64,000 nucleotides of DNA. Source: Lama guanicoe. Lineage: Eukaryota. The position numbers and the translations under genes were made by a program. Location of the stretch: NCBI GenBank assembly GCA_013239625.1, contig MU053810.1, positions 4,620,071 through 4,684,070 of the forward strand, given 5' to 3'. The notes beneath the pieces are model-generated. The model was given only the letters and a program-made list of their open reading frames with translations, had not been told where the DNA came from and ran no database searches. This document shows positions 3,396 through 51,554 of this stretch, piece after piece; the stretch's first letter is position 1, and each line of letters starts with the position of its first letter.

Positions 3396-3399
3396 TATT

Positions 3400-20845: not shown

Positions 20846-20869
20846 GTAACAATTTACAAAATCGCCATA

Positions 20870-28660: not shown

Positions 28661-29013
28661 TCCTTGGAATACACATGTATATTGACATACATTTAGAACC
28701 TACTTGTGTATTGGAATGTATCTGGAATATATGCATATTCACAAGCGTTTAGAATGTGTGTGTCTGGACTTGAGGAGTGTGGGCTGCAGCCATTGGTGTA
28801 TACAGGTGTGTTCTCAAGTTTGTTCTGTTTATGGCATTCTCAGTGCCCGTAGGCCAAAAGAAAGACCTAGCACTTCTGGTCATTAAGTGGTAAAGTCTGA
28901 ACAACTTAGTGTTTATGTCCTAACGACCTAGTGGGCAATTGAAAATAAAATCATATAAGTGAAAGGGAAATACATATATATATATATGTATATCTTTTTT
29001 TTTTTCATCCTCA

Positions 29014-30342
29014 AGTGATGGTTAATTTTATATGCCGACTTGGCTTGGCCATTGTACCCACATATTTGATCAAACACCAGTCTGGATGTTGCTATGAAGG
29101 TATTTTTTAGATGAGATTTGAACTAGTAGACTTTTTTTTCCCTTTTTTTTTAGAGTAATAGTCATTTTACAGTGTTGTGTCAAATTCTAGTGTAGAGCAC
29201 AATTTTTCAGTTATACATGAACAGTTATTCATTGCCACTTTTTTTTTCCACTGTAAGATATCACAAGATCTTGTATATATTTCCCTGTGCTATACAGTAT
29301 GCTCTTGTTTATCTATTCTGCATTTTAAAATCCCAGTCTGTCCCTTCCCACCCCCCACCCCCTTAGCAACCACAAGTTTGTATTCTATGTCTATGAGTCT
29401 GTTTCTGTTCTATATTTCTGTTTTTCGGTGTTTTTTTTAGAGTCCTCATATGAACAATCTCATATGGTATTTTTCTTTCTCTTTCTGGCTTACTTCACTT
29501 AGAATGACATTCTCCAGGAATATCCATGTTGCTGCAAATGGCATTATGTTGTCAGTTTTTGTGGCTGAATAGTATTCCATCATATAAATATACCACATCT
29601 TCTTCATCCAGTCATCTGTTGATGGACATCTAGGCTGTTTCCATGTCTTGGCTATTGTAAATAGTGCTGCTATGAACATTGGGGTGCAGGTGTCATTTTC
29701 AAGTAGGGTTCCTTCTGGATATATGCCCAGGAGCGGGATTCCTGGGTCATATGGTAAGTCTATTCCTAGTCTTTTGAGGAATCTCCATACTGTTTTCCAC
29801 AGTGGCTTTCCTTGCTTCCCTCTCCCACTCTTAATGATTTAGATGTCTTCTTTTACAATTTTATATTTATTCTTTTTGTAATTCATGGCAGTTATCTCCT
29901 TTCCAGTTAGGAGTTTCTCATTTTTGTAGCATCCTGCTTCTTTTCTATTTAGAGTAGACCTGTGAATATTTCTTTTAGCATGGGTTTGGTGTTGCTAAAT
30001 TCTTTTAAGATTTTGCTTGTATGTGAATTGAACTAGTAGACTTCGAGAAATGCAATTTCTCTCCGTACTGTGGGTGGGCATCAGGCAATCTTCCAAGGAC
30101 CTTAAGAGATAATGGCTGAGGTTCTTGGAGGACAAAGGAATTCTGCCTCCAGACTATCTTCAGACTCATCTGCATCATCAACTCTCCCCTAAGGCCTTAG
30201 CCTGCCTTGCAGATTGGGGACTTGCCAGCCCTGACAATGGTGTGAACCAGTTCCTAAAATCAATCTCTTTCTGTACGTACACACACATACACACACACAC
30301 ACCCTATTGGTTCTGTTTCTCTGGAGAACACTTAGCAATGGT
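29014..30342 (+). mobile_element. MLT2-family solo LTR (ERVL) split by an L1
   Basis: 5' part GTGATGGTTAATTTTATATGCCGACTTGGC (29015-29133). 3' part ends CCTATTGGTTCTGTTTCTCTGGAGAAC (30028-30342). Confidence 0.88.
29134..30027 (-). mobile_element. Young L1 insertion: ORF1 C-terminus and inter-ORF spacer fused to ORF2 C-terminus and 3'UTR
   Basis: Perfect 16-bp TSD TTGAACTAGTAGACTT (29118-29133 / 30028-30043). ORF 29446-29679(-) [24 protein letters not shown] is the ORF2 end. 29950-30027(-) translates ..LKEFSNTKPMLKEIFTGLL*, the ORF1 end. Confidence 0.88.
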
Positions 30343-31573
30343 ATGTGTGCACCATGGGGCACTGCACGACTTCTCAAACCTTGGAAACAGATGGGAGATC
30401 TTTTCCTGTTCCACTGTGATTTTTGTACAGTGCTTGCTTTTTATCACAACTACTTCCCAGAACCCTGCTTTGCAAAGATGACATCATTCAAAGGAATGTA
30501 GGTGATCTCATGTTGATACTGGGAGCTACCTCGAGCTAGTATTTTGCATGGTATCCAACAAGTGTCAAACATGGCTATATTCCCCTTGGAAATGTCACAG
30601 ATCCCACAGCGCTCTGTGCATTGGCTGTGGCATCCAGCACCTACACGCACAGTTTGGGAATTGTGGGTCCAGGCTTGGCAGTAGTTGTGGGGTTGGGATT
30701 AGCACAGACAGCAGAGATGAGCCCCAGAAAACACCTGCTAGGAAGAGCAGCAGCAGAAGAGCTTCTGAGAGGAGATTCTAAAGGGAGACTAGAGACGTAG
30801 GAAAAAAATTGATATTCTGTCTGAACAGAGCAAGGAAAAGATGATCACAGGTAAGAAATGAATCCAGGCGAAGGACAGAAGGCTGGAGGAAATATTCTCT
30901 GATGCTTACATGGCTGCAGTTAGGAGGGTGGGGCTGTGGTAATGTTTTCACCCTTTTCTATCTTTTCCACCTTTTTTTTACATGTCTGTGTCTCCATTGT
31001 ATAATGAAGAAAGGCATATTTACAACCATGAAAAACAATGTTTCCTAGCTTTCCTGTTACTCGACACACTTGATCATTTATTTTTTCCTTTTTTCCGTCC
31101 ATTTCCAGCATTGAGCTGTGTGTATGTGTGCGCCTGCGCTGGGTGAGTTGGGGGGGGAGGGCGGGAGGAGGCAGAAACAGATAATAAAACAAGGTATAAC
31201 AGGAAAAAATATTTCCAGGTTTGCTTTTCTTCATGAAATGTTCAGTAGAGTTGGGGAGGTTAAGAGGTAGAGCAGGTTGGCTGAAGTCTATACAAGGAAA
31301 CCCCAAGTAGAAGCCAAGGCCCCGTGCACTGGAGCAGGAGGTCGAAGGTTGGCAGGGCTGGAGCGGCCCCTGGGGAGGGCGTGAGAATGGCCCAGGTGAG
31401 TGGAGCTGGGAGGAACACATGGGGTGAGCCTTAGCACTGCACTTGGACATGACCCGAGCAAAAGAACCTGGACGGATGGTGTCAGGCCCTGCTTTAACAC
31501 ACAGCCTTGGTTTCCTCAAGCCAGCATTAAAGACATCAGTCTTTACCAAAACACTTAAAGTTTCTTGGCTTTT

Positions 31574-32653
31574 GGGGGGGGGGTGACATTATTTTTATTG
31601 ATAGTGAGTGCAAGCAGGTGTGAGTGGCTGTTCCTCTTTCAGAGGATGCTAGGCTGAAGAAGCCGGGAAGGGAGGGCCGGAACTGGACTGTGGATGCAGG
31701 ATTCACTCCTTATTTGGGTGGGAATGCTGCATTCGGAGAGGAAGATTTACTGTGGGACCAGGCATAGGCACGGGGGAGGCCGGCGGCACCAGCCCTCAGG
31801 CCGCACTTTCTATCTGGAACACGGCCGCATCGGCAGCCTCAGGTCTCCCGGGATCTTCCTCGGTGTCTCGCGGAGGTTGTGGCTCTGACTTGGCCTCCAG
31901 CGCAGGCTGGGCTTCGGGCTGGCCCTCAGCACTCCGGCCAGTCCCAAGGCGAGGGGGCTTAACAGTCGTGGGTGCCGGCGCAGCAGGGCCTTTACGGCCC
32001 GGTGGAGCCCTTCGCAGGCTCTGGACCTTCTGCACCCGGTGCGCCGCAGCCGCCGCGCCCTGGACTCTACGGGCTCCTCGTCTGATCTCTCCTCATCTTC
32101 GGCCTCCGGCTGCTCTGGGCCATGGTCGGCCTGTTCCTCCGACGCCGTCTGGAAGGCTCTGGCTGGGATTTCTGCCTCCTCCTGGAGGAGCAGAACTTGG
32201 AGCTTCCCGCGCGCCACCAGCAGCCGGTGGTCGGCCGCCAGCCGCTGCAGCGGGGTGGCGCGGCGCGCGGCGCGCTCCTGGGCGGCATCCGCCTCGGCCA
32301 GCAGCTGCGCCAGCCTGTTGCTCGTGGTGTCGTGGCTGCGACTCAGCGCGCCCAGGCCACTCTGGATGCGGCTCACGGAGCCGGCCAGGCCCCCCTGCCT
32401 CTGAGCCAGGCCCCCCTGCCGCTCGCGCAGCGCCTCCAGCATGGTGGCCAGCTTCTCCAGCAGGGTCACCACGGTGACTGCGTGCACCGGGCCCCCCGGC
32501 CGGCGGCCAGGGCCCCGGCCCCGGCGCGCTCTCCCGCTTGATCCCCGAACGCCCTGCTTGGCTCTCCCCGCAGCCGCCGGCTGCGCTCTGGGCTGGGGCT
32601 GCCCTTCCCGGCTCCTCCCCAGCTCCGGCCGTGACTCAGGCAGGCGGAGTTTG
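31574..32653 (-). pseudogene. CAVIN3: Processed pseudogene (retrocopy) of caveolae-associated protein 3 (CAVIN3/PRKCDBP/SRBC)
   Basis: Translations [57 protein letters not shown] and [33 protein letters not shown] match CAVIN3. The copy is intronless across the parental exon junction ([11 protein letters not shown]). Start codon ATG>AAG at 32539-32537; 1-nt frameshift near 32038; stop at 31796-31798; AATAAA at 31594-31599. Perfect TSD AAGTTTCTTGGCTTTT (31558-31573 / 32654-32669). Confidence 0.95.
31780..32650. promoter_or_regulatory. CpG-island-like segment created by the CAVIN3 retrocopy
   Basis: Very GC-rich with dense CpG (e.g. GGCGCGGCGCGCGGCGCGC at 32258-32276), against CpG-poor flanks. 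An AP-1 site TGACTCA lies at 32632-32638. Activity is not demonstrated. Confidence 0.6.
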
Positions 32654-33589
32654 AAGTTTCTTGGCTTTTACTGAAAAATTGCCTAGAAGAAGATTCATCG
32701 ATCTAGCTTCACGAAGGGTCCATTCAGGTAAAGTTTTTCTATCCATTAACTAAAGCCCATATTAATGATACAGCAGTGTGACACAATGAAAAGTTGACAT
32801 CGGTAAACACAAAATTTCCGATTTTGGGGGAAATTACTATCATCTTGTAACTGGTTGTTTCATCAGGTAAAAACAGTAATTTCAAGAGTCATGTGGCCAG
32901 AACCAGTGGGCTTATTTTGCATTCAATATGAAATTCTACTTGGCATCTACTTGTATTTTGAGGAAACATTAAAAGACAAGAAATCATCCTGTTCCAAGTC
33001 TCCAGGAAGGTTATGATTTTAATTCCACACCACAGAAAATGCAAACAAATTTGTAATTACACTTCACGCATGGAGCTCTGTGGAGGAAAAATAAATTGGT
33101 ACCCATCTACCCGAAAGCCGTAAGTCAGACATGGAATGGCTAATCACAGATATAAATTGAATAAACTGCATGCTCGGTGCTGATTACTTTCCCCTCAGTT
33201 TTGTGTACAATTAAGAATTTAGATCTTAGGCTGCATCATTTTTGAAGTGTGACTCCAAAGCGAAAGTTCATTTTTGAATTCTCCTAATCCTGGTTTACAC
33301 TTTTCATTCCTTTTTGGTTAAAGTATGATCTTGAGGAGGCTCCTATTAAACTAAGTATAGACCTGGGCAATTTTCAGAACATCACAGCTCCTATCCATTT
33401 ATCAGCATAACCAGAACTGACTGAGAAAAACACAGCTGTTCTCACTGTGTAAAAACAAAGCAACTTTCAGTAGTAGTTGCCATGCATTGATTTAATGGAA
33501 AGGAGATGGTTTTTGCGGGCCCAGCACTGGTTCTTCACCTTCTTATTCTCATCACAGACACCTAAGGACATCTTAAAAACTACAGAAGA

Positions 33590-34223
33590 AATGGTGCAGC
33601 TGCTAGGAAAACAATGTGGTGGTTCCTCAAAAAAAAAGTTAAAAATAGAATTACCATATGACCCAACAATTCAACTTCATGGTGTGTACTAATGGAATTG
33701 AAAGCTGAGACTTAAAGAGATTTTTGTATATTCATGTTCAGGGGAGGATTAATCATTACAGACAAGAGGTAGAAGCAGCCCATGTGTCTAGCAGTGGAAG
33801 ATTGGGTACACACAATGTGGTCTGCACATCCAGTGGAATATTATTCAGCCTTAAAAAGGAAGGAAATCTTGTCTCATGCTACAACATGGGTGAAACTTTG
33901 GGACATTAAAGCTACATGAAGATAGTCAAGAAAGGACAAATACCATCTGATGCCAGTTTTATGAGGTCCCTAGAGTAGTGAAATTCTTAAGAGGCTGAAA
34001 GTAGAATGGAAGTTGCCAGGGGCTGGGGGAGTGGGTAATAGGGAGTGATTATTTGATGGGTACAGAGTTTCAGTTTTGCAGCATGGAGAGAGTTCTGGAG
34101 ATGGATGGTGACGTGGCACAGCAGTGTGAATGTACTTAATGCCACCTAACCGTACACTTAAAAATGGTTAAGATGGCCATTTTATATCATGTTTATTTTA
34201 CCACCATTGAAAAAAACAGAATC
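33590..34223 (+). mobile_element. L1MB-like 3' fragment
   Basis: ORF2 end (KKLKIELPYDPTI) plus L1MB 3'UTR (GGGTACAGAGTTTCAGTTTTGCA...AAAATGGTTAAGATGG). Degenerate TSD AAAAACTACAGAAGA / AAAAACTTTAGAGGA. Confidence 0.88.
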
Positions 34224-37200
34224 AAAAACTTTAGAGGAGGGGGCTTCACCAGAGAAATTCGATTCTGGGTAGCTGCAGTGACTCTGGTCTAAGGCCTGGG
34301 CTGATCTCTGGAATGGTTACACCTGGGTGGTACAGCCAACAGTGGGGTGCCCTCCCTGCCCAGTGATGGGAGGGGACAGCTAAGCACCGGAAGGAGAGAA
34401 GGTAGAGCCAAGCAAAGAAGATGACCCTGTAAACGTTTAGCCAAGGAGTTAATCCAGTGAGTGGAACTGCAGACACTTGGAATAACTTGTGCATATGGGC
34501 CAGAAGGGTCTTTCGGTCACATCTGGGCTACTGTGTCCTTCAAAGCATGCAGAATGGGTGGAGGTCTGTCATGCCTCCAAGAAGCCCCATCTCTGCCCTG
34601 GGTCTTGCTGCTCAGGTGAAAATCTAGAAAATAGTTGTGACGCATCTGCTTGGAATGAAGCAGAGATAGAAGGGAGGCTCAGAATGAATGGACCACATTA
34701 CTTTCCACCCCAGTGATTCATGATTGAATAAAAAACTTTTATAGATGCTTCTGAGAGAGATGTGGTGACGTGCCTTGCAAGTGATCCTTCCCTCTTTTGA
34801 TTGTGAGGATGTGAACCTTGGTCTAGCCCTTTGTTTCCTCGTGAACCTTCTGGCCCAGAAGCACCTTATTGAACATTGGGCTAATGGAGTGACCTCTGCA
34901 TCAATTCAGTTTCTACACGTGCACAGAGAGTTTCACGGGTGCTTCAGTGGCTCGCTAAGTAAGGCGAACCATTGTTCAATTGAGTAAATCCTTCCATGCC
35001 AGGAGAAATTCGTGACAATGCTGCATTTCTCCTTTTCCAGAGAATTTTATGGCAATCAATAATAGTCAGCCCTGGTGTCCCTGCCGAAGCTCTTGATGGA
35101 ACGCAATTCATTTTGAGTGACCTTTACTTTTCAGTAATACTTCTTTATTTGTGAAGTGCAGATTGCAAACAGCCTAATCAGCCCTCTGGCTTTTGGTTAT
35201 TAGCATTCCATCTGCTTTATAATGCCATTTAAAAACCAGCTGTGCTAGGAAGGAAAAAAGTATTGACTGAATCTTTTCTGGAAGAAAAAATTTGTGTAGC
35301 ATTAAGATCACCAAATGGCAATGTCTTCTTTTGTGGGGGGTGTGTGTGAGAGACTGACTTAAGGTGTTTGTCATATTTCTTTTTTAAGTACCAGAAATCA
35401 TGGGCCCTGGTTAATGGTAGGTTTATGAACAGAAATGTCTCCAAAAACCAAAGGGGGAATAATCATTTTGGTCGTAAAAATCTTATAAATGATTTTATTA
35501 TAAATCATAAGATGTTATGAAGTTAAGCATTAGATCTTGGGTTGAAAAGCCCCTGTAAATATGGAGAGGAAAATACAGATGGGGGTTGAGTGCCGGGTGG
35601 GAGTATTATTAAGAATTCTTGGAATTTTCTTCCCAAGCTGCGGTTCATTAGTTGTTTATTTTGTAGTTCTGCTTCTCCAGTAATCTCTGTATCTTAGACT
35701 CTACTTTTTAAAAAGGTGGTGTTGATACTTGTTCGAGCTCTGGTCCTGTCAAATCTTGCAAACTTGTACTGCTCCTGTGCTCATTTCTTGGGTAGGAGCC
35801 TGAGCTCATCATGCATGTTCATAATAATGCGTGTACTTGCCTTTACTCAGAGACTGCTTGAAAGAGCCTTGCCTTCCTGGATTGATCATGAACTTGACCC
35901 CTGAGATCCTGGCTGTGCAGAACTTAAGTTGGGGAAGGTATAAGCAGGTGATCAGCAAGGTACCGGTTGGGTGCCACCTTCTCAACTTGAAATAATCCTA
36001 GAAATTCTCATTTCTGTTTATCAAGGAGCAATGCCGGAGCCACCTGAAGTGAGCAGTAAGTGGAAATGGAAGCTCAGTTTTCTGACCGGTCTTCCTTCTT
36101 CCAGCACTCCCTCATCACAGACGTGTGGGGCCGTGATCTACAGGTTCTTCGAAGGTGGCACCTTGTCTTGGGGAATTTTCGTTTCCCTTTCAGGGTTGGA
36201 GCTTGGCTCTTGGATTTCAGAGAGGAAAGCTCAGAGGCAGGCTGTGGCAGTTCAGCTGCCTCTTCTGTTGTCAGTTCCTGGAGTTGTGGATAAATTGGGA
36301 TTTATTAAGTGGGGAGGTGTGGAAGCAAGATAAGAAAGAAGGGTGTGTTTGGTCCCTGGGTGAGCACCTAAGAATGAGAGAGGGAAGGTCATCTTGGACT
36401 CATCCCTTCAACTTACAGATGAGACCTCAGAGAGAATGGGGGAGCTCTCGACCGAGCTCTCAAATCAGCAGTGGTAACTCAGCCACCATGCCCCTTACCA
36501 GCTGCATTTTACAACACAGTCTGGACAGATTCTCTTAAACCTCTCAGACAAGACTAATTACAAGCATCCAGTTGATACTGTAATGCACCAGTTTGTCTGG
36601 TCTGGCTTTAAGATTAGAGAAAATTTTGCTTTTGATGCAAAGTGAAGAAACGGTAATAAGTTACAGGTCACGAGGCAGAAGTTTTGCTTTGCACGAGGGT
36701 GTGAATGGACATGTGTGGGCATGTATGTACACTTTGGTGTGGGGATGAAGAGAAGAAAATGAATAAAACTCTTAATATGCTAGTTTCTCTCCTAAGTTCA
36801 ATCTCTATATTTTATATTCTTTCTACCCTGTGCCATGTTCTTGTGGGGGTTTGTGGTCTTTGAATTATTTTCTGTGGGACTCGATTTAGGGTTCTTGTTC
36901 TTCAAATCCAAGGTTCTAGAATTATTTGAGCTTACAGGTGGGAAAGTATGCACTGGTTAAGTCACTTGTCCACTCTGGTTGGTTGCATTGATGGTTTACA
37001 ATTGTGGAGCCCTCGGTAACAAGGGTGGGTCACTGCCACCTCCCTCGCCAACACACTTACTCATGGGTCCATTGAGTAACTTGTTAAATAAAATTTGCAC
37101 GTTACTGAAAAATTGGCTCAAATTTTTCGTCATTCATTTATTAAGAAAAGGAGTTTATTCTGGCATTGAACATTATTCTGTAAATTGGAATTTAGAGGAG

Positions 37201-37899
37201 ACAGCATAAGGATGAATCCTAGGATATGCACTTGTCCCCATCGTCCCTCATCTGGAGTGCTGGTCTTTTGCCTCTTTCTTTTGTAAGTTAGGCATTGTTG
37301 CCTCTAGTCTTCTCATCCACACTATGTATGTTAGCATCTTTCAGGATTGTTTCCCTCCCATGCACCCCTGGGAGGGCAGGCAGGTCCAGATCCCAGGCCA
37401 GCTCAAGACATTTCTAAGAGAACACCATCATTCCTTTTTCCTGGACTCATCAACCCAGAATGAAAAGAGGGTACCATTCCCAAGTACCTCACCTCCTTCT
37501 CAGAAGATTTATCCATCATGGCATCCATGCATTTGAAACAGAATCCACTCTCTGAATGATCCCTCCAATGAATTTAGAAGGAAAAGAACTCCCTTGGGAA
37601 TGCCAAATAATTACACTCACATTTTTTGTTTTAAATTTTGTTCATACCGTATGTGGTCTTGTTCCATTTTTATGGTACATTGTTAACAAAACAGCATAAT
37701 AATTTTCTGAAAACTGCTTGGTTTTCATGTACTTAGAGCTACTCAGCTAAAAAATAGATCATCATCATAGCAGCTAAAATGTTTTGTTTCCACTTCATCA
37801 TATGTGTGTGTGTGTGTGTATATACAATGTGTATATGTACAATGTATATGCATATATATCATTGGATTATGTAGTTAATGGGAAATGAACATAGAAGTA

Positions 37900-38560
37900 T
37901 CATTTTTGGTTTTTAAATGAGCAATAGTTAGGCAAGCTTGTATGCTAATGGCAATGATCCAGAGAAGAGTGGAGGGTGATTTTAGGAGGGAAGAAACTGA
38001 ACGAAGGATTGCGATTTAGTGGAAGAGTTGGCCTTAGGAACAGAGCCAGTTTTTCTGTCTTTACAGTAGGAAAGAGGTAGTATTTGGGTACATCGATTTG
38101 GTGGATGAGGGGAAGGGAATAAGGTAGTTCTTGTCTGTCAATGACAAATGAGGGGAGGTGATCTGCTGAGAGTAAGAAAAGGATGTTGGAAGTTGGAGGA
38201 GAGAGGAAAACCTATGAAATAGATTGTCATCCTGAAAAACAAAAAAGCAAGCTAATGAGGAAAGTGTAGAAGAATCATTGCGCAGAGTTGAGTTCTCACT
38301 TGAGATCTGTGGTAATGAGGTTAAGGTAAGACCATTAAGCAGAGTTGTGCAGAGTTTGGTTTTGTCTTTTGTTTTTTTCCCCTTCCAGCAATTTTAGCTG
38401 CTCAATTGCAAATAGTTAGGTTCAACCTGTATTGATTGCCTGGCTGGTGCAATGGCGGAAGAGAGGCTCAAGGCAGATGAAGATATTGGCAAGGAATTGA
38501 TCATGAAGTTGGACCACAGAATCCAAACTAGGTGTGATGAAGTGGAAGGAGGATTGGGAT
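37900..38560 (-). mobile_element. L2 internal fragment
   Basis: Purine-rich L2-type sequence (GCTTGTATGCTAATGGCAATGATCCAGAGAAGAG, GGAAGAGTTGGCCTTAGG). Confidence 0.55.
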
Positions 38561-39761
38561 TGAAGGCTAAGACCCACGTGGGGTTGAGGAATCACTGGAA
38601 AGTGTTTCTGGCTGTTTAATCATGCTGCCTTCAATTTGACTGTGTGACTGTGCATTGTTTGAACTATGCCCTATATGGCCAACTGTCCTGAGGGTCCTTG
38701 ACGGGGTGGGTGGTGGGGAGCACAGCTGTCCAGAGATCCAGTAGCCAAGTTCTCATATCAGGGAAAAACTTGGGAGCATGATTTTCATTTAAAAGACTGT
38801 GTGAGCAGTGTAAGAGGTAGAAGTTTTTTTTGTTTTTTTTGTTTTTTCATTTACCAGCATTTATTCAATTTGAGATTAGTAATTTTTTTAAGCTCAACTA
38901 TTTTTAATAGATTTTTTAAAAAAATATATCCCTTTTTAAAATTTCTTTTTTACTCAGTTTAAAAGTAAATCACAAGTAGAGGTGAGGATTAATATTTAGT
39001 CCTCTGGAAATTTTTTTTTACATAAATCACATCCATTATGGAAAATTCAGAAAGTTCAAAAAGCATTTTAAAATATCCTGTCCTGCAGGTAGAAATGTCT
39101 TTCTATTTTTTGGGCATATTTTAGAAGAGTAGTTTTTATTACTTAATGTCTTGTCACTTTATTTTTCATGGTTGTACAATACTTGTGTTAATTTTTTAAA
39201 TACATGGAATTATTGTTACTAGACATTAAAATCTCTTCACATGGATGATATGATGAATAACTCAGCAATGAGCCCCAGGAAAAGAGTATCTTAAGTCAGA
39301 AATATACCAATTAAAGGGGCCCTGACCTTCCCTGTTAAGGCTTTGTTGGGAGCAGTATTTACATTTCAGGAAGTTTCGGGACTGTCTGGATGGAAGCACC
39401 ACATGCGGACTTTGGAAACCTGGGAAACTAAAGGGAACTTACTTTCTATCCAGCGTTTACTCCTTTATCTTTTCCATCAAGCTCTTTGATCACTAGAATA
39501 CCTCTGTGGATGCTGTAGGATGTCCTAAGTTGTAAAGGTTCCAATAGGTTATCAGCTTACTCACCATATCTCCAAGATCTTGAAATTAACATCTTAGAGG
39601 AGAAAGCCTTAAATCACAAAAATTCTACTTGCTTCCTTCACCCCAACTAAGAGTTAAAAAGAGTGCAAATGTTTTTTCTTATGGCAGAATACATTAATCT
39701 AGCTCATGAAATACAAATCTTTGTGGTAGCCTAGTTTGAGAAAAACAGACAAAAGCTCTTT

Positions 39762-41805
39762 TGTTTTTTTTATTGTGAAACGTCTTTTTATTTTCAGAAA
39801 AAAATTTAGTTAACAAAAAAATTTAACAAGTTTCACTTAGCAAAATACACCCAAAGGGAAATCACAGTACAAAAAAAGTTTTAAGTCAAGGCCTTACCAG
39901 TTCCTACAGTATTAGAAATGTGTCTCGGTTTTCAAAACTAAATTTTTAAAAGCTTAAACTTAACCTAAAAGATTTTAAATGAAAATAAAATAGAATGAAC
40001 AAACATGAGAAATGTTCCTGTTTGAATTAGAGGTGTAGCAGCTTGAGGTTTCAAAAAAAAAAAAGAGAGAGAAAAAAGCACACCTTCCCAATGTGTTCAC
40101 GATGGTGTAAAAGATCCACACTTAACATACTTAAATCTACTTTACAACTCAGATAACATCACTCCAGAAGTACACTACCAAAATATTAATTGAGAAAAGC
40201 TAAAAATAGTTTGAGTTTACTCAATATCACATGCTGGAAGAAAGTTTGCATGAGAAAACACTGAAGAGGTAATTTTTTTTCTTCCAGATTTCACAAACTC
40301 ATGGTGCAAAAAGGGTCCCACAGCTTCCTCTAGAGTAATAACTGCTTTTCACTGCTTGTTGGCTGCCTGTGAAAATTTGATCGAAATAACTCAAATGCTG
40401 CCACAAAACTAGTCATACCCTCCCATGCTGTTCTGGACACCGTAGCCAGCCTCGTAACAGCCACTCACGGATTGGCTCTCAAGGCCACTGTAAGTGGACC
40501 GGGTTGACACCCCCATGCCCTGCATCATCAGGCTGCTATAAGTCCTGTTGCTGGCCCCCGTTGTGGAATTCGAGAAGAGTTCTCTGTATCTGTTGCATGT
40601 TGGCCCTGCTTTTGGACATGGCCGCCACAGCTTCTTCATGAGTAGCAAACTCAGTATCAGCTTTGCCCGTCACTCTTCCATCAGGGCCAGTCTCAATATG
40701 GACCCTCACGGGGTTGAGCGGAGAGAAGAAGTTGTAAATGTCGTTCTCCGTGGCCTTGCAGGGCAGCCCCCTCATGTGGACGCAGTGCCCAGTGGTGCTC
40801 TGGACAGTGAACTCGCCATCTCCATCCCTGTGGTCATACATCCCAGAGAGACAGTAGCTGAGGTCTCTTCCAAACAGGTCAGTGGTGAAGCCATAGCCAT
40901 CGCTGAGGCCGCTGTACTCCTCGTAGCCTCCATAGCCTGCACTGTAGGCTCTGGACCTCATCCTCTCCAGGCCTGCTGGTTTGACAGTGCTGACGTACCT
41001 CCTGGCTGTGCCGGGGCGGTCACAGGGCCCCGGTCGCTGCACCGACATGAACTTCAGAGGGGGATCCGAGTATGACTGACTTCTTCCTGACTGCTCTTGA
41101 ACACCTCGGTATATCTGTGCCCTGTTCTCTCCTTGTGCTTCCCCAGAGCCTTCTCAGCTAACTCCTGGGAGGCAGACTGCACAAAGGCTTCCCCTGTAAT
41201 CTTGCCCTCGGGGTCCACAGGCAGTGTGATCCCATTTGGCATGATTTCCAACCCTGAGAAGAACTAAACGATTGCTTCCTTGGTGCATCCAAATGGGAGT
41301 CCTCGAAGCCGCACAGAACCATCATTGGTGGTGTCGGCACTGTTTGGACCACTGTGCTTCAACACCCAACCCATCTCGATTCTGTGGGACTTGAACACCT
41401 CAATGTACTGCTGTCCCATCCTTTCCCTGTCTTTTTTAAGGGCCATTTTTACATCTTATCATTCAAGCAACAAAGCCTCACCACGCTGCCTGCCTTCTCT
41501 AGTGTAGATAAAATGAACGCCCGCGGCCCCATCCTGAATCGTGCAGATGGAGAGGAAAGTCTGCACATCCTCAACAGAGCAGGACCAGGGCAGGCCACGG
41601 AGCTTGACCACAAAGCCTTCACCTCCCTCAGGGCTCAGCATCATGGACACTTGACAGGGCAGACGTCAAACAAGCTTGGGTGCCACTTCTTGTGGCTTAG
41701 AGAACAGTGAAGGATGCCCACAGTCAGAGACACTCCAGGCAGACAACGAATTATCCTTTCCCTCTAGTAAGGCGCGGAGCAGTCCCACTTCCAAGACCGA
41801 GCCGG
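39762..41805 (-). pseudogene. HNRNPF: Processed pseudogene (retrocopy) of heterogeneous nuclear ribonucleoprotein F
   Basis: Five ORF pieces tile the HNRNPF protein from [23 protein letters not shown] (ATG 41644) to QNSMGGYD* (stop 40409), covering three qRRM domains. Lesions: deletion/frameshift near 41460, premature TAG 41264-41266, frameshifts near 41075 and 40590. About 160 nt of 5'UTR and 640 nt of 3'UTR, AATAAA at 39787-39792, short poly(A). Perfect TSD AGACAAAAGCTCTTT (39747-39761 / 41806-41820). Confidence 0.96.
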
Positions 41806-42364
41806 AGACAAAAGCTCTTTATAACACAGATGGTGTACTTCCCTAATTCATTTTTCCAGTGTGCTCTAACATTTCTCAGATCTAAAGGTGTGAAGGGCAT
41901 GGTTACCAAAAACAAATAGAAGTGAACGACGCTGTGTTATTAAATGTCATGCTTTTTGATTTGTCGGCCATGTATTATCTCAAACAAAAATGGATTTTCC
42001 TACTCTTACACTTTGGCGTTTTCTCAGCTGGGCTATCCACAGTATGATTTGTGGCGTTCTTCTTTTCCAGTAAGGAATGGAAATATAAATTGCTGTGTTT
42101 CCTTTCTTTCAAAATTATGAATTAATACTGGTTCTCAAAATTCCTACACATAGGAAAGTTATAGCTGAAGTAGACTGGTGTTTTGTTGGTAACTAGGGAA
42201 GAGAGTGACGTGAAACAGCTGATGGTATGTAAATGATGGGTAATAATTTAAGCAGAGTGAGGTGGTGAATTCTTGTCCACGGTGGAAATGTTTTGTGCAT
42301 ACCACTTTTGGATTTCCTTTCATTGAATTATACTTGCTTCTTGGTATTTTCAAAAGACAGCATA

Positions 42365-42502
42365 GGGGAAAGGGTATAGCTCAAGTGGTAGAGTGCATGC
42401 TCAGCACCCAAGAGGTCTCGGGTTCAATCCCAGGTACCTCCTGCAAGCGGAAATCAAAGAAGAAACCCAATTACCTCCCCCTCAGCAAACAAACAATACA
42501 AG
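42365..42502 (+). mobile_element. tRNA-derived SINE (camelid vic-1-type)
   Basis: GGGGAAAGGGTATAGCTCAAGTGGTAGAGTGCATGCTCAGCACCCAAGAGGTCTCGGGTTCAATCCC. TSD CAAAAGACAGCATA (42351-42364) / CAAAGGACAGCATA (42503-42516). Confidence 0.92.
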
Positions 42503-42799
42503 CAAAGGACAGCATAAAATGGTTTTTGTTTGTTTTCTGAAGTTAAGATGAAAAGTGCAAACTCATTGCATTTGTACTAGAAAGGATGCAAGCTAGTTGC
42601 TGTCTTCCAAATTGGCATCACTTCTTTGATGAGAACTAGCAATGAGATTTTAACAATCTTTCCCAAAAATGTCGTAACCTGTGTGGTTTTAAGTGGGCTT
42701 TTGTTATTTTATTACTTGGTGTAAAGTCCCCTTTCGGTATAAATTTAAGGGAATTGCTCATTGAATCCTACATGCTTTCTATATTATTACGTATTAGGT

Positions 42800-42980
42800 G
42801 TTAATGCCTCTCAAATACTCTTTGAATATGTACTTTTGTTTTTATTCCCATTTTACTGATGAAGAAACAGTGCCCCGAGGATTTTTGTAACTTGCCTGGG
42901 GTCACAGCTCAACAAATGGCAGACCAAGATTGAAACTCTAGTTCTAGAGAATGTAATCTTAAATCCATGTTACATTTCCT
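42800..42980 (-). mobile_element. MIR SINE
   Basis: ATTCCCATTTTACTGATGAAGAAACAG...TAACTTGCCTGGGGTCACAGCT. Confidence 0.75.
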
Positions 42981-43354
42981 TCAGTTCCAGCATTCTGGGA
43001 CCTAGTGTCCTCCATCTGCTCCACGCTATGGTGGTGCACTCTGTTCTGGAATGTTAGTCATTGTTGTGTGTGACCTTGTGACTCTCTGGGATCCAAATGG
43101 GGCTACTGAGCAGTAAAACAGCTCTATGAACAGACGTGTCAGTGCCCTTATTTTTTATTTACTAGGAATAAATGAGTAATTGATACGTTAAGTTTTCAAA
43201 TTTCCATGACCATATCCCTTTTCCCCTCTTTATATCTACAAAAGGTCCTCAGGGACAACATAGTTAATATATATATATGTATATATATTTATATCTTTAT
43301 CTGTTAATTTTTGAAACCCACAATTATTTATCTATTCATAGTTTATCTTATGGT

Positions 43355-43845
43355 ACTGGTACATGTTACAACATGGAGCTGTTTTGAGAACATTAGGCTA
43401 GGTCAAAGAAGCCAGTCACAGAGGACCACATATTTTATGATCCCATGTATATGAAATGTCCAAAATAGGCCAACCCAGAGATAAAAAGTAGACTGGTGGT
43501 TGCCTAGGGCTGAGGAAGCTGATGGGAGATGAGAAGTGTCTGCAGATGGGTGTGGGGTTTCATTTCAGAATGAGAAAAATATTTTAAAGTTGACTGCCAT
43601 GATAGTTGTGCGACCCTGTGAATAAACCAAAAAACCATGAAGTTGTACACCTTTTTTTTTTTTACAATTAAAAAAAACCTGTTTATTTATTTGGAAGTAT
43701 AATTGATTTACAATATTATATTTGTTTCAGGTGTATAACATAGTAATTTAATACTTTTATAGATTATACTCCATTTAAAATTATTATAAAATATTAGCTA
43801 TATTCCCTCTGCTAAATTGTGCACTTTTAATAGGTGCATTCATGG
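43355..43845 (+). mobile_element. L1MB-like 3' fragment interrupted by a younger antisense L1 3' end
   Basis: AAAGAAGCCAGTCACAGAGGACCACATATTTTATGATCCC...GTTGCCTAGGGCTG, resuming after 43812. Confidence 0.8.
43652..43812 (-). mobile_element. Short L1 3' end with poly(A)
   Basis: T-run then GAAGTATAATTGATTTACAATATTATATTTGTTTCAGGTGTA. Degenerate TSD TGAAGTTGTACACCTTTT / TAAATTGTGCACTTTT. Confidence 0.75.
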
Positions 43846-46800
43846 GGCATCAGGTACCATGCTAATGGGCCTTTAGCGAGACAAAGAGCATGAAGAACAT
43901 GCTCAGACAGCACAAAATTCAGTTTTTGTTCTACTGTCCAGGTTGCCTTTGGCAAAGGGCATTTAAGAATTATATTTGGTAAACACCTTTTCTACAAAAC
44001 AAGCATAGTATAGTGTTGCTCTTTTCCCTTAGAATGTGTTGACACATTACTTAAATAAACAGAGATCTACCAGGAAAGTCCCATGTCGCCTGTCCCAGCA
44101 GAAGTATCCTCAGATGCTTCTTCTAGACCTTAGCAAGCGCAGCAAGCATGAACTCACCCAGGTTTCTTTCCAGCTTTTACTTCAAAATTACCGAGTGAAC
44201 CAAGCAGTGGTTGACATTTTTGACAGAGTTTAATACACTGTTGTAAACCCTGGGATTTGATATTCATCATCTGGGCCAAACTCCATGAGTTCATAGTGAT
44301 TGTTGTTGTTGTAATTGGTGCAGTAGTATTTCTTATACTGATGTACTCAACTCAGTAATTTAAAAGTATATTTACACATAGTATATTTTTGAAAGACAGT
44401 ACTGCATCTCATGAGCTATTTCTTCCTAGAAACCAAAGACTTTCTGATAATGATGAAATTAATTCCGATGCTTGGAAAGAGATCTGGAAAATGGATGCTG
44501 CATACACATTATTTCTTCTGTGACCGATGTCTTGCCATCTTGGGTTGGAGTGTCCATGCATACCTCACTTTCTGGGAGCAGGACGCATAGCAATTTGTTA
44601 ATTCGTAGACAATTGTTTCTCATTTTCCCTTTTCCTAGACTTTTTGCCAGGTTCGGCAAAGAACAGGACATTGTAATCTCTCCAGATGTTTTCTAAATTT
44701 AACTTAAGTGAGTTTGAAGGCTAGAAGGCAACCAGATTCAATGCCCAATCTGGTGTAAGAGTCACCAGAAATCAGGAGGAGTATTTGTCCCAGTGTGTGT
44801 CATCTTTCTAGGTTCTCCTGTCAAGGATTCCTCCAGGGTCCCTTCTCAGGTGATTCTGGTGTCTAAAGTGCAGAGCTCTTGTTGGTACCTTTCACAATGC
44901 TTAACATCCCTTTATGGAACTGTAAGCAATCTTCTTAGCCTGAGTCCCCCAGTCCTGTACAATCACACCTAAATGACACTGAAACAAATGACCTCAATGG
45001 CCCCTTTCTTCCGGAGGACTGACAGATACTCTTCAAATCCTATAGGATGTGCTCATGCTGGAAAGAACTTCGAAATTATTCATTCACTCAAGCTGGGCTG
45101 AGTTTAATCCTTCTAAGAAAGGTAGCTGCCACGTTTTTAAGATGTTAACTGTATTTTATAATTTTGACTATGATGTTTGTGTCTAACCTAAAACTGGTTT
45201 GAAATGGATTTGCTTTACATATAATGTAAGCGTATGTGTTTCTTCCCCTGATTCTGGAAGTAATACATGTTCCTTTTAAACGATTGTCAAGTTAAGGCAT
45301 TTTAAGTTTATTTCCTTTCTTCTTTGCTTGTGGCTTTGAAATTTAGACAGGATGGATTCTTGTCTTATAAGGCAGATGACTCTTAAGGAAGAGTAATTTT
45401 ATCCTAACAGAATCACGTGGAAACTATCTTTTAAAAGGACGTATGGGAAAATACAAACTAATGTTTCTGGAATAAATTCTGTTTACATGGTGAAGGAAAA
45501 CTTTTGAGTCAAAGTGATGCATTTAGATCCAGGTTGATCTGATGCCTGAACCAGCTTTGTGAAGCAAGTTTTCAAGCTTGGTTTCCTTATCTATAAAATA
45601 AAGAAACATATTTTTCTCAGTATTGTGTGGATTGAATAAAATGCTACATGTAAAAAGAATCTGATAGGAATCAGGTAAACATAGTAGCTTCTCAAATAAT
45701 CATTTTCCCTCCCACACCTTCTTTGTGTCTTCTTAACTTCTTTTTCTTACATATATTATCCCATTGTTAGACATCTCTTTATCAGCACAGCAAATATATT
45801 TCTTCTAGGTTATTGGAATTCATTGAATATGTTTTTCCCGGTTTTGGCCATTCCTACCTAATTTGGGGCCATTCAAATAAATGTTCATGTATAGTTCATC
45901 AGTTATAATCTAAATCTAAATTTTCAAGCTACAGAAAATTAGCCTTCTACGTGGAAAGAAATCCCATGCCATCATCCTTTGTAAAAAGGATTTGTTTTCT
46001 TTGTGTCAAAGTAGTATATTTGGGGCTTGGCCTCAACCTTGCATGGACCTGTGGGATTACGAGGTTCAGAAGATGGTACACTCACAGGTGAGCCGATAGG
46101 CAGGAATGTTGCTGCTTATTTGTTTAATAACCAGGAATGAGGCCACGTGACTTACATGCATTTTCTAGTCTAATCTTCACAGCCCTCCCGTGGGTGTCCT
46201 TATCCCTGTTTCAGGAGAGGAAATGAAGGTCCTTAGAGGTTGGTTAGCTCACTCAGGGTGGCACTCTTGAGAAAGTTCTAGACCAAGGCTGCACCCGGGC
46301 CTGCCTGAGACTTTTAGTGTTTTCCACAATTTGATTGCGTTTAGGGGGCGTGATTACAGGATGACATCTTTAACACGCAGAACATAAGTCTCCCAGCAAA
46401 GCCAGGTTGGTAGTCTCGCCAGACAGATTCTCTCCTCTCCTCTGTCTTCTCTCCCGCTGCCATTTGCCTGCCAGGATGATGGGGTCGTTGGTTAGAGTGC
46501 GTTGATCAATGTAGCTGATCCCATCATCACAGTGTCATGATGTCAGCAAAGAGCCCTGCTGCAGGCTGTGCACTTCCCCATACAACGGAAGGGGAATCTG
46601 ATCAGGACTTGATCTCCCTGCCATTGGGATGGGGAGGGAAGGAGGCCTGTCCGGTTGGGCCTCTGCCCTAGAGGAACATGAATTCAACCACAGGTGCTGT
46701 GCGGTTCCCTCCCAGCCTCCATCTTTCCCTCCCAGTCTCCGTCTCTCCCTCCCATCCCTGAGGCTGGGCAGGGCTCCCCTGACCCCAGCGGACTGATTCC

Positions 46801-47784
46801 CTGTGAAGTTCACTCCTGGGAGCTTTCTTTGGCCTTAAACTGCCATCGAGTGAACTCTCTCTTCTGTTGCTGACTATCTCACATTTAGCTGAATGTTCTT
46901 TTCTTCTATGATGTCCGCCTCACAGGGACTCCTAGAATTCACTTGGAAACTATTTTCAAGTGAGCAGAAATACCTCAGCATTCAATCTAGCTTTTTAGTG
47001 CTGGGAATATTCTTAGAAAGAAAGAGCATGTGTGTGTGTGTGTGTAAATGTGTCTGGCCCATGTTGTATGGAGATAGTTCTCTGTCAGATAATCCTAAAA
47101 GTGCAAATCCTGTTCTCTGGATGCTTCACTCTTTCCTTCCCTGTAGACGTTGTGTTGTGCTCAACAGGCTGCCAAATCTGTATGGATTAGAGCCTTCTGC
47201 TCCTCCTGTCAAAATAACCAACCATCACTGTGCAGAAGAAAAACCCAGAAATGCATTCTTCCTGGGCTGAAGTGGGACTCAGTGCCCTGGCTTGCAAATG
47301 AACTTCCTGTTTCTTTCTAGAAGCATTCTGCCGTCGTATGTAACAGGATTCCCTTTTTCATGTCTTCTGCATGTAGGCAGAAATCTTCATGAAAGCTCAG
47401 TTAAGATGGCAGTCAGATCACTTGGGAGATTGTCATGTCCTCCTCTGTTCCTGGAAACAGGGACTTCGAAAAGTTGTTTTTACTTAAATTTTCTTTAAAT
47501 CACTATCCAGAGTTGAGTTCTCCTTTTTCTTTCCTTTTCGGTGGAGGCTTGATGTTTATTTCATTACTTCCACCTCTAGATTAAGTATAACTTCTCCCTT
47601 ATCTGAACCCCACCCTCCTGGAAAAACTTAAGGAAACTGAATCAGGAAAACAAAGCCTATTTATTTCCTTTCACCCTCTATGTCATCTCCTATGGCTCTT
47701 TTAATATTTATTTTTATGAACTGAGGTTGTAGTTTTGATTTCCTCAATGTGGCTTTCAGAGCAAAAAGGATGAAACTAACATTC

Positions 47785-47930
47785 AGGAGATAGGATTTCC
47801 CACTGGCTCCGCCACTTGTTACCTGGTGACTGTAGACAAGGCATTTAACTTTGGTTCCAATCTCTTAAGTGTGGGGGCTGCACTGGATGGCCTGGAAATT
47901 CCTTTTAGTGTCAACATTCTGGGACTCTGA
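47785..47930 (+). mobile_element. MIR SINE fragment
   Basis: CTGGCTCCGCCACTTGTTACCTGGTGACTGTAGACAAGGCATTTAAC. Confidence 0.6.
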
Positions 47931-48269
47931 AATAAAGCTAGCTGCTTAGAGTGAAAATATCCTTATTTGTTCCAAAAAATCACCCTTTATAATAATTAAC
48001 GTTGTTTGAAGGGAGCGCTGATACACAGATCTTGCACAAATAATTAAAATTTGAAGAAGTCTACGAGACTGTTTCTGTGGCATGAAATAACGCTCCAAGC
48101 ATAGCGCGGTGGCCTGTTCCAGCAGTTAGCTTGTTTTTGAGAAGCACAACCCACTGTAGATGTCAGAGCAGCCTTTGAGCTCTGGGTACAAATGTGTACA
48201 AGGCCACAATCACAGAGAACAAGCATCACCGACATCTGGAATTTAGCCATAAATTCATCCCAAAAGTTG

Positions 48270-48475
48270 TGAGTTTGGGATGAGCAGATACTACTGTACA
48301 CAGAGTAGATAAACAGCAAAGACCTACTGTATAGCCAGGGACCTGTACTCAGTAGCTTGTAATAACCTATCATGAAAAAGAATATGTGTGTATGACTGAA
48401 TCACTATGCCAGACCCCAGGAACTAACACAACGTTGTAAATCAACTGTACTTCAGTTTAAAATATGAAATGAATG
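48270..48475 (+). mobile_element. Short cetartiodactyl L1 3' end
   Basis: GAGTTTGGGATGAGCAGATAC...GATAAACAGCAAAGACCTACTGTATAGC...AACTAACACAACGTTGTAAATCAACTGTACTTCAG. Confidence 0.85.
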
Positions 48476-48602
48476 TTTGTCACTAATCCTAAGCATTTCA
48501 GTTAGAGAGACACCTGCCAATTTAGTGGGAGACTGTGACAACGGAAAGATGGCAGCTGACAGCAGAAAGATGATTAATTTTTTAATCAAAAATTTAGATT
48601 AA

Positions 48603-51535
48603 GTCACTGCGGCGTGGTCGGACTCGGCGCATCCAGGTGCCCAGGGCGGATGGCCGAACCCAGAACTGGAGGGGAAGAGGAGAGGTCGATGGGCCAGAAC
48701 GTCTGGGTCCAGCATTGCAGTTGGCACTTGATATCCACGTCCATGGAAGGATGAAACTGCTGGGAGGCCAAGTAGGCTGCCCCAGGCTGGCCAGTTGCGG
48801 GATGAGGCGGCTGGGGCGTGGATCTCCCTGTCTGGGTAGGGTTTAGAGGGTGGAGGCTGTCACCCTAGCCTGGGGAGTGAGGCTTGCCACCAGGGAAGGA
48901 GCTGGGCTCCACCACCGAGCTACCTGCTTGGCCCGGGAGGGGCGGAGGCTGTGAACCTCCGGACCGCTCCCTCTCGTACCTCCCCTCCTCAGCCCTCGCA
49001 GCCAGTCTGGGGAGGCAGCATGGAGGGGGAGGGCTGTTTGGCCAGGGAACCTGGAGTGCAGGGTTCCGGGGGATACAGAATGTGGGCTGCACTTGCAGAT
49101 GGAGGAGAGCTCCAGCCACGCCAAGGTTCTGGATCTGCCATCAGTTAGGAGCTCAGCCATGTGGGCCCCCAGCCGCCATCACCTCTGTCTGACCTTCCTA
49201 CTGGTCTGTGTTTCTGCTGCAACCCTCTTCTTCCACATCCACCGAGACCTCTTTCACAATGGCTTGGACCTGTCTGCCTTGTGTCCAGACCATAACCTGG
49301 TGACATCCCCTGTGGCCATCTTCTGCCTGTCGGGCACGCCTGTGAACCCCAACACCTCCATTTCCTGTCCCAAGCATCCAGCCTCGTCCTCGGGAACCTG
49401 GACTATCTACCCAGACAGTCGGTTCGGGAACCAGGTGGGGTAGTATGCCACGCTGCTGGCCCTGGCCCAGCTCGATGGCTGCCAGGCCTTCATCCAGCCC
49501 ACTATGCACGCTGCCTTGGCCTCCGTGTTCTGCATCACCCTGCCCGTGCTGGCGCCCGAGGTGGACCACCACACGCCTTGGCGGGAGCTCGAGCAGCACA
49601 ACTGGGTGTTGGAGGAGTACGCCCGCTTGGAGGAGCCTTGGCTGAAGCTCACCGGCTTCCCCTGCCCCTGGACCTTCTTCCACTATCTCCGGGAACAGAT
49701 CGGCCACAAGTTCACCCTGCACGACCACCTCAGGCAAAAGGCCCAGTGTTTACTGAGTCAGCTCCGCCTGCGATGCACCGGGAAGCGCCCGAACACCTTC
49801 GTGGGTGTGACTATCTGGAGGTGATGCCCCACCACTGGAAGGGTGTGGTGGGAGATCACGCTTACCTCCAGCAGGCTATGGACTGGTTCCGGGCCGGCAT
49901 GAAGCCCCCATCTTTGTGGTCACCAGCAACAGCATAGGGTGGTGCCAGAAAAATATTGACACCTCCCGGGGGGATGTGATCTTTGCTGGGGGTGGGCAGG
50001 AGGATGCCCCCAGTAAGGACTTCGCTCTCCTCGTTCAGTGCAACCACACCATCATGACTATTGGCACCTTTGGCTTCTGGGCCGCCTACCTGGCTGGTGG
50101 AGACACTGTCTACCTGGCCAACTTCACCCTGCCTGACTCCAAATTCCTGAAAATCTTTAAACCTGAGGCTGCCTTCCTGCCTGAGTGGGTGGGCATTAAT
50201 GCAGACTTGTCTCCACTCCAGATGTAGGCTGGGCAGCAGGGAAACTTTCTGGAATAGCCTGACCAACTTGGAACCAGTATTATATGCCTCTGGAAGCCTA
50301 GTAGCTCCTGGAGGAGCTTGTGGTCCTGCAGCAGGTGGGCATCCATTTCGAGAGTGATTCTAGTTGGCTAGACTTTGAGGGGAAAAAAAAAAAAAAAGAA
50401 AGGTTCTTTCTGTAACTGCCTAAACATTCTAGAACCAGCATATCTTTTCATGATGGCTGGCAATGTCTGGAGAAGCTCATGGCAGTTCTAGAGGCCATAG
50501 TACCTACCTGTTCTTCTCAGTCCTTATCCAGAGTACTTCTAGATGGCTGCCACCCCCAGGAACAAAGAACTGCCCACTCCAGTGTTTGACCAGCCTAGTC
50601 TTTTCTAGAAGGGATATTTCTCCTCCCCTGGGTCATCAGGACTGAAGAAACTCGTGGATACTCTACAGCAAGCGTTTACCAACTCCCCTTCAGTGTTTCT
50701 GGAGTGATTTTAGAGGCGGGATTTGCATTAAAGAGAGTCAAGTCTAATGCCTGTTAAGAACTTGCGGAGCCCTTTCAGACGGGATGGGATTCTGGAATTA
50801 CAGATAACCTTGGCAAAGAAGCTAATGAAGTTACAACCAGGGGTGCAGCACCTCACCGCTTTTAGAAGGTGATGGAAGGTAAACGGTCTGTAGCTGGGAA
50901 AGTTTGTGAACAGAGTGAAACTGGACCCAAATTCTCAGCCCCTGAAAAAACCACAGATCTGCTAAAATGTAGGAGGCGGGGAAAGGGAGAGTGGCAGCCT
51001 AAGGGGCAAGGCTCTCCAGAAATCAAGGGGCTTTTTTTTAAACCCCCAAACTGTCAAAGGTAGGCATGTCTCTCCCAATTAAGGATGTTTTCTCCTCTTT
51101 AGTGAGGCTGCTGGAGATGATGAGGTCAATTTACTGATAGCCAGCTGGCATAAGGGTACCCTCTGGGCTTGCAGAAAGCTGCAGGTACTGTGCTCTTTGC
51201 CAACCACTATCTACCTCTGAATTTCCAGAACCACTGAATCTGGCTTCAGGCAAGTCAGAAATGAAAAGACCAGGATGTATACAGACCCCAGACTGGGCTC
51301 CCACTCAGGGAGGAGCACAGGATCTGGCCAAAGAGGATGTGATCTTGATTCAGATTTCAGGCCCCCCTTGAGGCTTTTTGAAGGGAGTGGAGGTAGATGC
51401 TTTTATTACAGAGTTGTCTGAGAATTGAAGCTCTTCTCTAGTTTTCTCAGGGAGCTTTGGGGGACCATTCTCTATTCAGCTGGCATAGGTGGGAGAGGAG
51501 GAGGTATGGATTAAAAGTCCACACCACCAAAAAAA
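48603..51535 (+). pseudogene. FUT1: Processed pseudogene (retrocopy) of galactoside alpha-1,2-fucosyltransferase 1 (H blood-group enzyme, GT11); disrupted CDS 49159-50227
   Basis: [18 protein letters not shown]...[17 protein letters not shown] and [62 protein letters not shown] match FUT1, with a FUT1-type N-terminus rather than FUT2/SEC1. Premature TAG 49441-49443, frameshifting deletion near 49808, 1-nt frameshift near 49897. ATTAAA at 51510-51515, poly(A) from 51529. TSD AAAAATTTAGATTAA (48588-48602) / AAAAAATTAGATTAA (51536-51550). Confidence 0.93.
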
Positions 51536-51554
51536 AAAAAATTAGATTAAATGT

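Follow-up and report, generated by a model that had tools for sequence, protein, structure and literature searches.

A half-megabase domain dense in processed mRNA copies across the 5' part of KIAA1217 in the guanaco genome

Processed pseudogenes made by the machinery of long interspersed nuclear element 1 (L1) lack introns, are flanked by a target-site duplication (TSD), keep a poly(A) signal and have a broken frame. The human genome holds about 8,000 of them, on average about 2.6/Mb (RCPedia, PMC11387616). Local excesses of pseudogenes in both orientations have been described for active regions, the Piwi-interacting RNA (piRNA) clusters (PMC6461890), and CpG islands carried by intronic retrocopies are known from PPP1R26P1 in intron 2 of RB1 and from other cases (PMC3839921, PMC4122923). 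Here, we describe a stretch of 64,000 nucleotides of the Lama guanicoe genome (contig MU053810.1, positions 4,620,071 to 4,684,070; the window) that lies wholly (1..64000, + strand) inside intron 2 of KIAA1217 (sickle tail), a gene of the + strand. The window contains processed copies of CAVIN3, HNRNPF and FUT1 and is the downstream end of a domain with 42 retrocopies per Mb, unlike the human average and unlike the 0.8 Mb sampled here as background, where none was found. Taken one by one, the copies are processed pseudogenes of the usual kind. In the parts of the literature that our search reached, there was no report of a retrocopy-dense KIAA1217 domain, nor of camelid retrocopy counts.

Twenty-three retrocopies were found from -546 to +52 kb, 22 of them from -475 to +52 kb (about 530 kb); coordinates are window positions throughout, and signed kb values are distances in window coordinates (minus, upstream). 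With the window itself excluded, the same procedure gave 18 copies with a Pfam match over 600 kb of upstream sequence and none over 800 kb of background (p = 2e-7), an enrichment of at least ten-fold over the sampled background, whose 95% upper bound is 3.75/Mb. Although the upstream extension was driven by continuing finds, the 9 and 6 copies in the last two of its 200-kb blocks are out of sample. For a genome with 4,000-16,000 retrocopies, 22 copies in 530 kb would be expected 6e-17 to 5e-5 times. We judge the enrichment very probably genuine, and beyond ordinary variation or close to it. The preliminary description of this DNA had proposed a retrocopy trap from the three window copies. That idea is supported at the larger scale only: triplets within 20 kb are expected 3 times per genome at 4,000 copies and 23 times at 8,000, so the Poisson comparison it called for places the window cluster by itself within chance, and we dropped the triplet as stand-alone evidence. 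Within the domain, the spacing of copies is compatible with a uniform distribution (p = 0.6).

These counts come from a scan of 600 kb upstream and 200 kb downstream of the window, with about 1.9 Mb of genome covered in all. Non-repetitive open reading frames (ORFs) of at least 60 amino acids were ranked by coding-likeness and the best were submitted to Pfam: the best 150 of 2285 in 464 kb and, for each of two additional blocks of 200 kb, the best 75 (out of 832 and 777). The background comprised twelve 50-kb blocks on other contigs (best 150 of 2104 ORFs) and four on the window's contig (best 75 of 722), and its Pfam scan went to a lower score cut than that of the domain. The procedure is blind to old, short or UTR-only copies (UTR, untranslated region), in domain and background alike. 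Before counting, we set aside background hits judged to be genuine exons (Kelch, MMS22L, RA, LDLa/MAM, CACNB, FN3/Ig, olfactory receptor), the remnant of a retroviral pol gene, a PH exon resembling ARHGAP21, and two hits of low significance (E~0.006). Used as DNA queries, whole flanks of the window (12-20 kb) mainly hit repeats.

All hits in the 800 kb of background were real exons, apart from one retroviral remnant; the 200 kb in four blocks elsewhere on the window's contig were likewise free of retrocopies, as were the GC-richer 212 kb that follow the FUT1 copy and 69 kb beside four retrocopies elsewhere (40 ORFs; P = 0.056 at the domain rate). The background block L100:6294-8530 (C5730) holds an endogenous retroviral pol remnant with long open stretches.

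The retrocopies upstream of the window are the following, all but PLA2G12A falling within the domain; the gene names, save those given by Pfam or a protein search, are what we take the translations to be.

-546 kb, + strand: PLA2G12A copy
-474 kb, - strand: EZR fragment
-467 kb, + strand: AP1M2 copy, ~94% identical to its parent
-445 kb, - strand: SMARCAL1 copy
-417 kb, - strand: EGLN2 copy
-412 kb, + strand: BECN1 copy
About -381 kb (L173:8541-9980), + strand: AKT3 copy, intact frame
-362 kb, - strand: KCTD15 copy
-341 kb, - strand: OLA1 copy
-304 kb, - strand: PLLP-like MARVEL copy
-283 kb, + strand: DGKZ copy
-274 kb, - strand: VASP copy
-249 kb, + strand: FSCN1 copy
-233 kb, - strand: RALY copy
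-225 kb, - strand: KRT18 copy
About -198 kb (L079:100-3690), - strand: NACC1 semi-processed copy, 12-kb intron 1 gone, later introns retained
About -176 kb (L081:3650-5400), + strand: NRL spliced copy with an 11-nt TSD, recognised by eye, no Pfam hit
About -145 kb (L084:3150-5670), - strand: TMEM250 copy embedded in an L1, its 5' end marked by long uninterrupted stretches of G/C
About -31 kb (L046:8920-9540), + strand: FUS fragment, recognised by eye, no Pfam hit
-20 kb, - strand: TMEM134 copy with a degenerate TSD

The window copies of CAVIN3 (- strand), HNRNPF (- strand) and FUT1 (+ strand) are the last three of the domain. The parent was located and loss of introns demonstrated for 10 of the 23 copies. 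The ten parents searched have only about one further copy apiece, and most parents in the domain are low-copy and GC-rich. Ribosomal-protein genes usually supply a large share of processed pseudogenes; among the 23 copies none has such a parent, a difference from typical processed pseudogenes. Six of the 23 parents (NACC1, AP1M2, VASP, EGLN2, FUT1 and KCTD15) lie on human chromosome 19, which may hint at nuclear co-location with speckle-associated genes. NRL, a retina-specific gene, is an odd parent for a germline copy. The FUS fragment has an internal skip at the same point as two other FUS copies (on C3175 and C1176), in which ~0.7 kb separates the two pieces.

The three window inserts are ordinary L1-made processed pseudogenes that no longer code for protein. 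Their parts are listed here with the two repeats of the window that served as density probes.

31558..31573: left TSD of the CAVIN3 copy, exact 16-mer
31574..32653, - strand: CAVIN3 processed pseudogene, spliced, with 21- and 15-nt deletions, a 1-nt frameshift and a CpG island
32654..32669: right TSD of the CAVIN3 copy, 16/16 match
39747..39761: left TSD of the HNRNPF copy, exact 15-mer
39762..41805, - strand: HNRNPF processed pseudogene, three parent exons fused, short A-tail, frame disrupted
41806..41820: right TSD of the HNRNPF copy, 15/15 match
48588..48602: left TSD of the FUT1 copy, 14/15 match
48603..51535, + strand: FUT1 processed pseudogene, ~560-nt 5'UTR exon joined to the coding exon, complete 3'UTR, A-tail, frame disrupted
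51536..51550: right TSD of the FUT1 copy, 14/15 match
42361..42490, + strand: short tRNA-like short interspersed element (SINE), presumably camelid, probe for SINE density
29120..30030, - strand: 3' end of an L1-type repeat that is young and abundant (many copies at 91-93% identity), probe for L1 density

Random pairs of 120-nt zones gave at most 11 TSD matches in 296 trials, and the TSDs of all three copies start with AAAA or AAAG on the mRNA strand. All three parents are on contigs other than the window's (CAVIN3, 2 exons, C993; HNRNPF, 3 exons, two of them 5'UTR, C9521; FUT1, 2 exons, C6946), each with introns that are absent from the copy and lie at proper splice junctions. Every copy spans 5'UTR, coding sequence and 3'UTR up to a poly(A) signal, which is present in all three, and an A-tail remains in HNRNPF and FUT1. 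The preliminary description was therefore correct in reading three spliced retrocopies with their own TSDs, in their strands and in their extent. In place of A on the mRNA strand, the tail of the CAVIN3 copy (31574-31583) consists of ten C. The copies still match Pfam families (PTRF_SDPR for CAVIN3, zf-RNPHF/RRM_1 for HNRNPF, Glyco_transf_11 for FUT1). All three are disabled: the start codon of the CAVIN3 copy is gone (ATG>AAG), and the coding sequence of the HNRNPF and FUT1 copies is spread across several frames. Divergence from the parent outside CpG sites is 4.7% for CAVIN3, 4.7% for HNRNPF and 6.3% for FUT1.

The host gene was identified from its exons. Exon 2 of KIAA1217 is at -49.5 kb and exon 3 at +84.6 kb, its main CpG-island promoter is at -60 kb, and an exon near the window is 100% identical to the sickle-tail proteins of Vicugna and Camelus. 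At -454 kb, a CpG island of 3 kb that carries a splice donor on the + strand could be a distal promoter of KIAA1217. The retrocopy-dense part opens about 20 kb before that island and closes in intron 2. Since the window is in a + strand intron, the RNA antisense to CAVIN3 and HNRNPF that the preliminary description foresaw would be expected anyway as host pre-mRNA. At +71 kb (L050:7164-7451) a frame matches an alternative KIAA1217 exon of a Bactrian camel isoform (P0242). A frameshifted HNRNPH2-like retrocopy lies at L037:5408-6552 (C1724, 3.81 Mb), 0.8 Mb before the window. A location on the X chromosome (Xq22), raised by this HNRNPH2-like match, was dropped once the match proved to be a frameshifted copy and the host to be KIAA1217.

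What could make this region so dense? The divergence outside CpG sites is confined to 3.7-6.4% in 7/7 dated copies, a narrow range that points to one wave of copying, and the CAVIN3 and AKT3 copies also occur in dromedary. All copies taken together, 14 are on the minus and 9 on the plus strand; within the presumed transcription unit 13 of 20 are antisense, compared with the 58% expected (p = 0.65), a figure of ~58% being given for intronic pseudogenes in primates (PMC6461890). Other elements do not follow the same pattern. SINEs number 18 in 532 kb of domain and 29 in 800 kb of background (3.4 vs 3.6 per 100 kb, p = 0.88), young L1 ends number 11 and 6 (2.1 vs 0.75 per 100 kb; 2.8-fold, p = 0.03), and the domain is no richer than the background in L1 target hexamers. 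With SINEs flat and L1 ends only 2.8-fold up, the excess is mainly one of mRNA copies. Its source would be the choice of insertion sites and not selection for keeping the copies, since broken frames predominate among the copies examined and their orientation is unbiased.

We therefore lean, with reserve, towards the explanation that the domain is dense because the long KIAA1217 unit was more accessible to insertions than is usual in cells of the germline or the early embryo. Camelid L1 proteins would have copied cellular mRNAs, spliced or partly spliced, in such cells; the copies would have inserted preferentially over the 5' part of this active long gene, and would then have been retained neutrally. 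Several parents (KRT18, EZR, AP1M2, PLLP and FUT1) are genes of epithelial or embryonic expression, and for this reason the stage would be the early embryo. A difference in stage between the copying of mRNAs and that of SINEs would account for the flat SINEs, which is conjecture. A weak parallel exists in human, where two colorectal studies found somatic L1 insertions in KIAA1217, recurrent in the same gene, by L1 machinery and in epithelial cells; unlike the guanaco copies, these are a pair of somatic L1 insertions in a gene of great length, with no test for enrichment, and not germline mRNA copies (PMC4579339).

Several points weigh against insertion preference at an accessible KIAA1217. SINEs depend on the same enzyme and are not enriched, a fact that plain open chromatin leaves unexplained, and engineered L1 elements reportedly show little preference for expressed or open chromatin in mapping studies. 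The distal promoter at -454 kb is an uncertain step that depends on human annotation. The background is small (800 kb), arbitrarily placed and AT-richer (GC 0.39 vs 0.42 in the domain), the camelid retrocopy load may be high, and comparable domains may be common. Thirteen of the 23 copies owe their identity to contiguous Pfam-matched ORFs, and a convincing TSD with a poly(A) signal was found for about 9 of the 22 copies tested in a de novo TSD scan, which did not rank the imperfect TSD of FUT1 first, nor find the degenerate one of TMEM134.

The plainest alternative is that the domain is one dense patch among many, produced with no special mechanism by a heavy camelid retrocopy load and strong regional variation. 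The small and AT-richer background would allow this, and pseudogene density in primates follows gene density and GC (PMC6461890). We nevertheless consider it unlikely, given the empty 800 kb (including 200 kb of the same contig), the empty and GC-richer 212 kb downstream and the empty 69 kb beside other copies, an expectation of 5e-5 even at 16,000 copies, and parents that, for the ten searched, have about one other copy apiece. Whole lineages can bear heavy retrocopy loads, although the source for this, as available, gives no local figure (PMC13251070). A germline small-RNA locus, an idea that the preliminary description also raised and in which the introns are processed to piRNAs or endogenous small interfering RNAs (endo-siRNAs) of germ cells and the copies are retained for tuning their parent genes, would explain why mRNA copies are enriched and SINEs are not. 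It seems improbable nonetheless: the antisense excess is absent (13/20 against 58%, p = 0.65), an A-MYB-like motif occurs 4 times in the 23 kb that surround the copies, less often than on average across the domain, and half a megabase of intron in a coding gene is unlike typical pachytene clusters. The domain does resemble pseudogene-containing clusters in its local excess in an active region and in its two orientations; unlike theirs, its copies are processed and extend over ~530 kb in and upstream of a coding gene. The accessible text on primate clusters also reports little selection on their pseudogenes and fewer processed ones (PMC6461890), and among the papers listed, as far as their text was available, by a search on KIAA1217 with piRNA or embryo, none named KIAA1217.

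Selection on the copies after a normal rate of landing, through expression from nearby enhancers or through CpG islands that would serve as new host promoters as in RB1, can draw on an intact AKT3 copy with E17K and C76F common to dromedary, on several copies that are still CpG-island-like, and on a CAVIN3 copy that may have been transcribed and re-copied (see below). Yet most copies examined are frame-broken, the CAVIN3 copy protein differs by 8% between camelid lineages, CpG retention is also seen in a CAVIN3 copy outside the domain, and a benefit from ~20 unrelated copies is implausible, which leaves this explanation less probable than a small-RNA locus. Least probable of all, in our judgement, is late replication or fragility of the long gene in the germline, which would give insertions more nicks to use regardless of how the gene is expressed. 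The 2.8-fold rise in young L1 ends (p = 0.03) and the great length of KIAA1217 with its recurrent somatic L1 insertions (PMC4579339) would agree with fragility, but SINEs are at background level, the observed TSDs and tails are canonical, and the literature that pairs KIAA1217 with a fragile site, as far as its text was available, concerns fusions and rearrangements.

The CAVIN3 copy of the window is a CpG island (GC 0.69, observed/expected CpG 0.70). Only 4/81 of the parent's CpGs have decayed to TG or CA in it, compared with 12/50 in the HNRNPF copy, 36/91 in FUT1, and 14/58, 47/136 and 20/94 in other neighbours; decay is lower than in the neighbours with 12/50, 36/91 and 14/58 (p<=0.002). 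A second CAVIN3 copy, outside the domain, is formed by C254:30973-31668 and C47150 (215/215 overlapping sites identical) and has also retained its CpGs (2/70 and 3/36 decayed). As both copies retain them, the CAVIN3 sequence itself is probably resistant to methylation, and we dropped the idea that retention is a property of the KIAA1217 locus. The retained island suggests low methylation in the male germline. Like PPP1R26P1 in intron 2 of RB1, and like the CpG islands of other intronic retrocopies, it has been kept within a host intron; unlike PPP1R26P1, it has a sister copy elsewhere that kept its CpGs too, and an RB1-like imprint, with allele-specific methylation and an alternative host transcript, is conjectural (PMC3839921, PMC4122923).

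The two CAVIN3 copies have 17 substitutions and a 1-nt frameshift in common that are absent from the parent. Four of the common changes fall at residues invariant in 16/16 orthologues; K86E, one of the four, is recurrent, as dromedary retains K, and three other common changes are parent-lineage changes. Coincidence alone would give about 0.9 AT-to-GC (W>S) hits across all sites. At its 5' end the window copy is 17 bases longer than the second. The simplest reading, to which we incline on balance, is that the second copy derives from the window copy by way of an RNA transcript, which would make it a relic of transcription in the germline; the alternatives are gene conversion or a third copy since lost. 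A dromedary protein model of the same CAVIN3 copy has the same deletions and frameshift (187/204 residues identical), so the insertion is likely older than the divergence of these two lineages of camelids. GC-biased gene conversion, whose mechanism is described elsewhere (PMC11161765), was dropped as an explanation for the window copy: the changes specific to that copy comprise 14 W>S and 18 S>W (p = 0.18). An AT-to-GC bias is strong in the second CAVIN3 copy (33 vs 12) and in a second HNRNPF copy at C3168:6118265-6120223 (100 vs 36), as GC-biased gene conversion would produce. ADAR editing was likewise dropped as a cause, since T>C changes are no fewer than A>G changes in the majority of comparisons, although in a single segment 15 A>G stand against 10 T>C. 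Fourteen runs listed or guessed as RNA held 0.20-0.27 of the words of 30500-39700 and were discarded as giving no evidence on transcription.

The AKT3 copy joins 13 parent exons in an intact frame of 479 codons, ~95% identical in nucleotides to the parent, and is also intact in dromedary (95% identical). Forty-three amino-acid changes are common to both camelid lineages, among them E17K and C76F; W79G/A and E319K are further changes, and most differences are apparently protein-changing. AKT1 is activated by E17K and C77F in the PH domain, and the AKT3 copy carries E17K and the equivalent C76F in both lineages; unlike those AKT1 mutants it is a germline-fixed retrogene, located outside the window, whose expression and activity are conjectural (PMC3702205).

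A bolder picture would unite these observations: the 5' half-megabase of KIAA1217 as a trap for mRNA copies that spares SINEs, filled in one ancestral camelid wave by L1 proteins that captured cellular and partly spliced RNAs in the early embryo, and then turned gene nursery, the source of an AKT3 retrogene with activating substitutions and of a CAVIN3 copy whose promoter island survived and from which a copy of the second generation arose. We offer it tentatively, and regard it as rather doubtful in full.

Retrocopies are usually taken as landing near-randomly; one locus at ten times the background density, specific to mRNA copies and mostly of a single age, would mean that the birthplace of new gene copies can be strongly local. 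The cell stage at which heritable retrocopies form would then become testable, as the expression of the parents and the chromatin of the host should indicate the same cell type. The ~20 copies of the same age in the same place also form a natural experiment in which to follow how CpGs decay and genes are born, and the domain has yielded at least one candidate new gene, the AKT3 copy with E17K.

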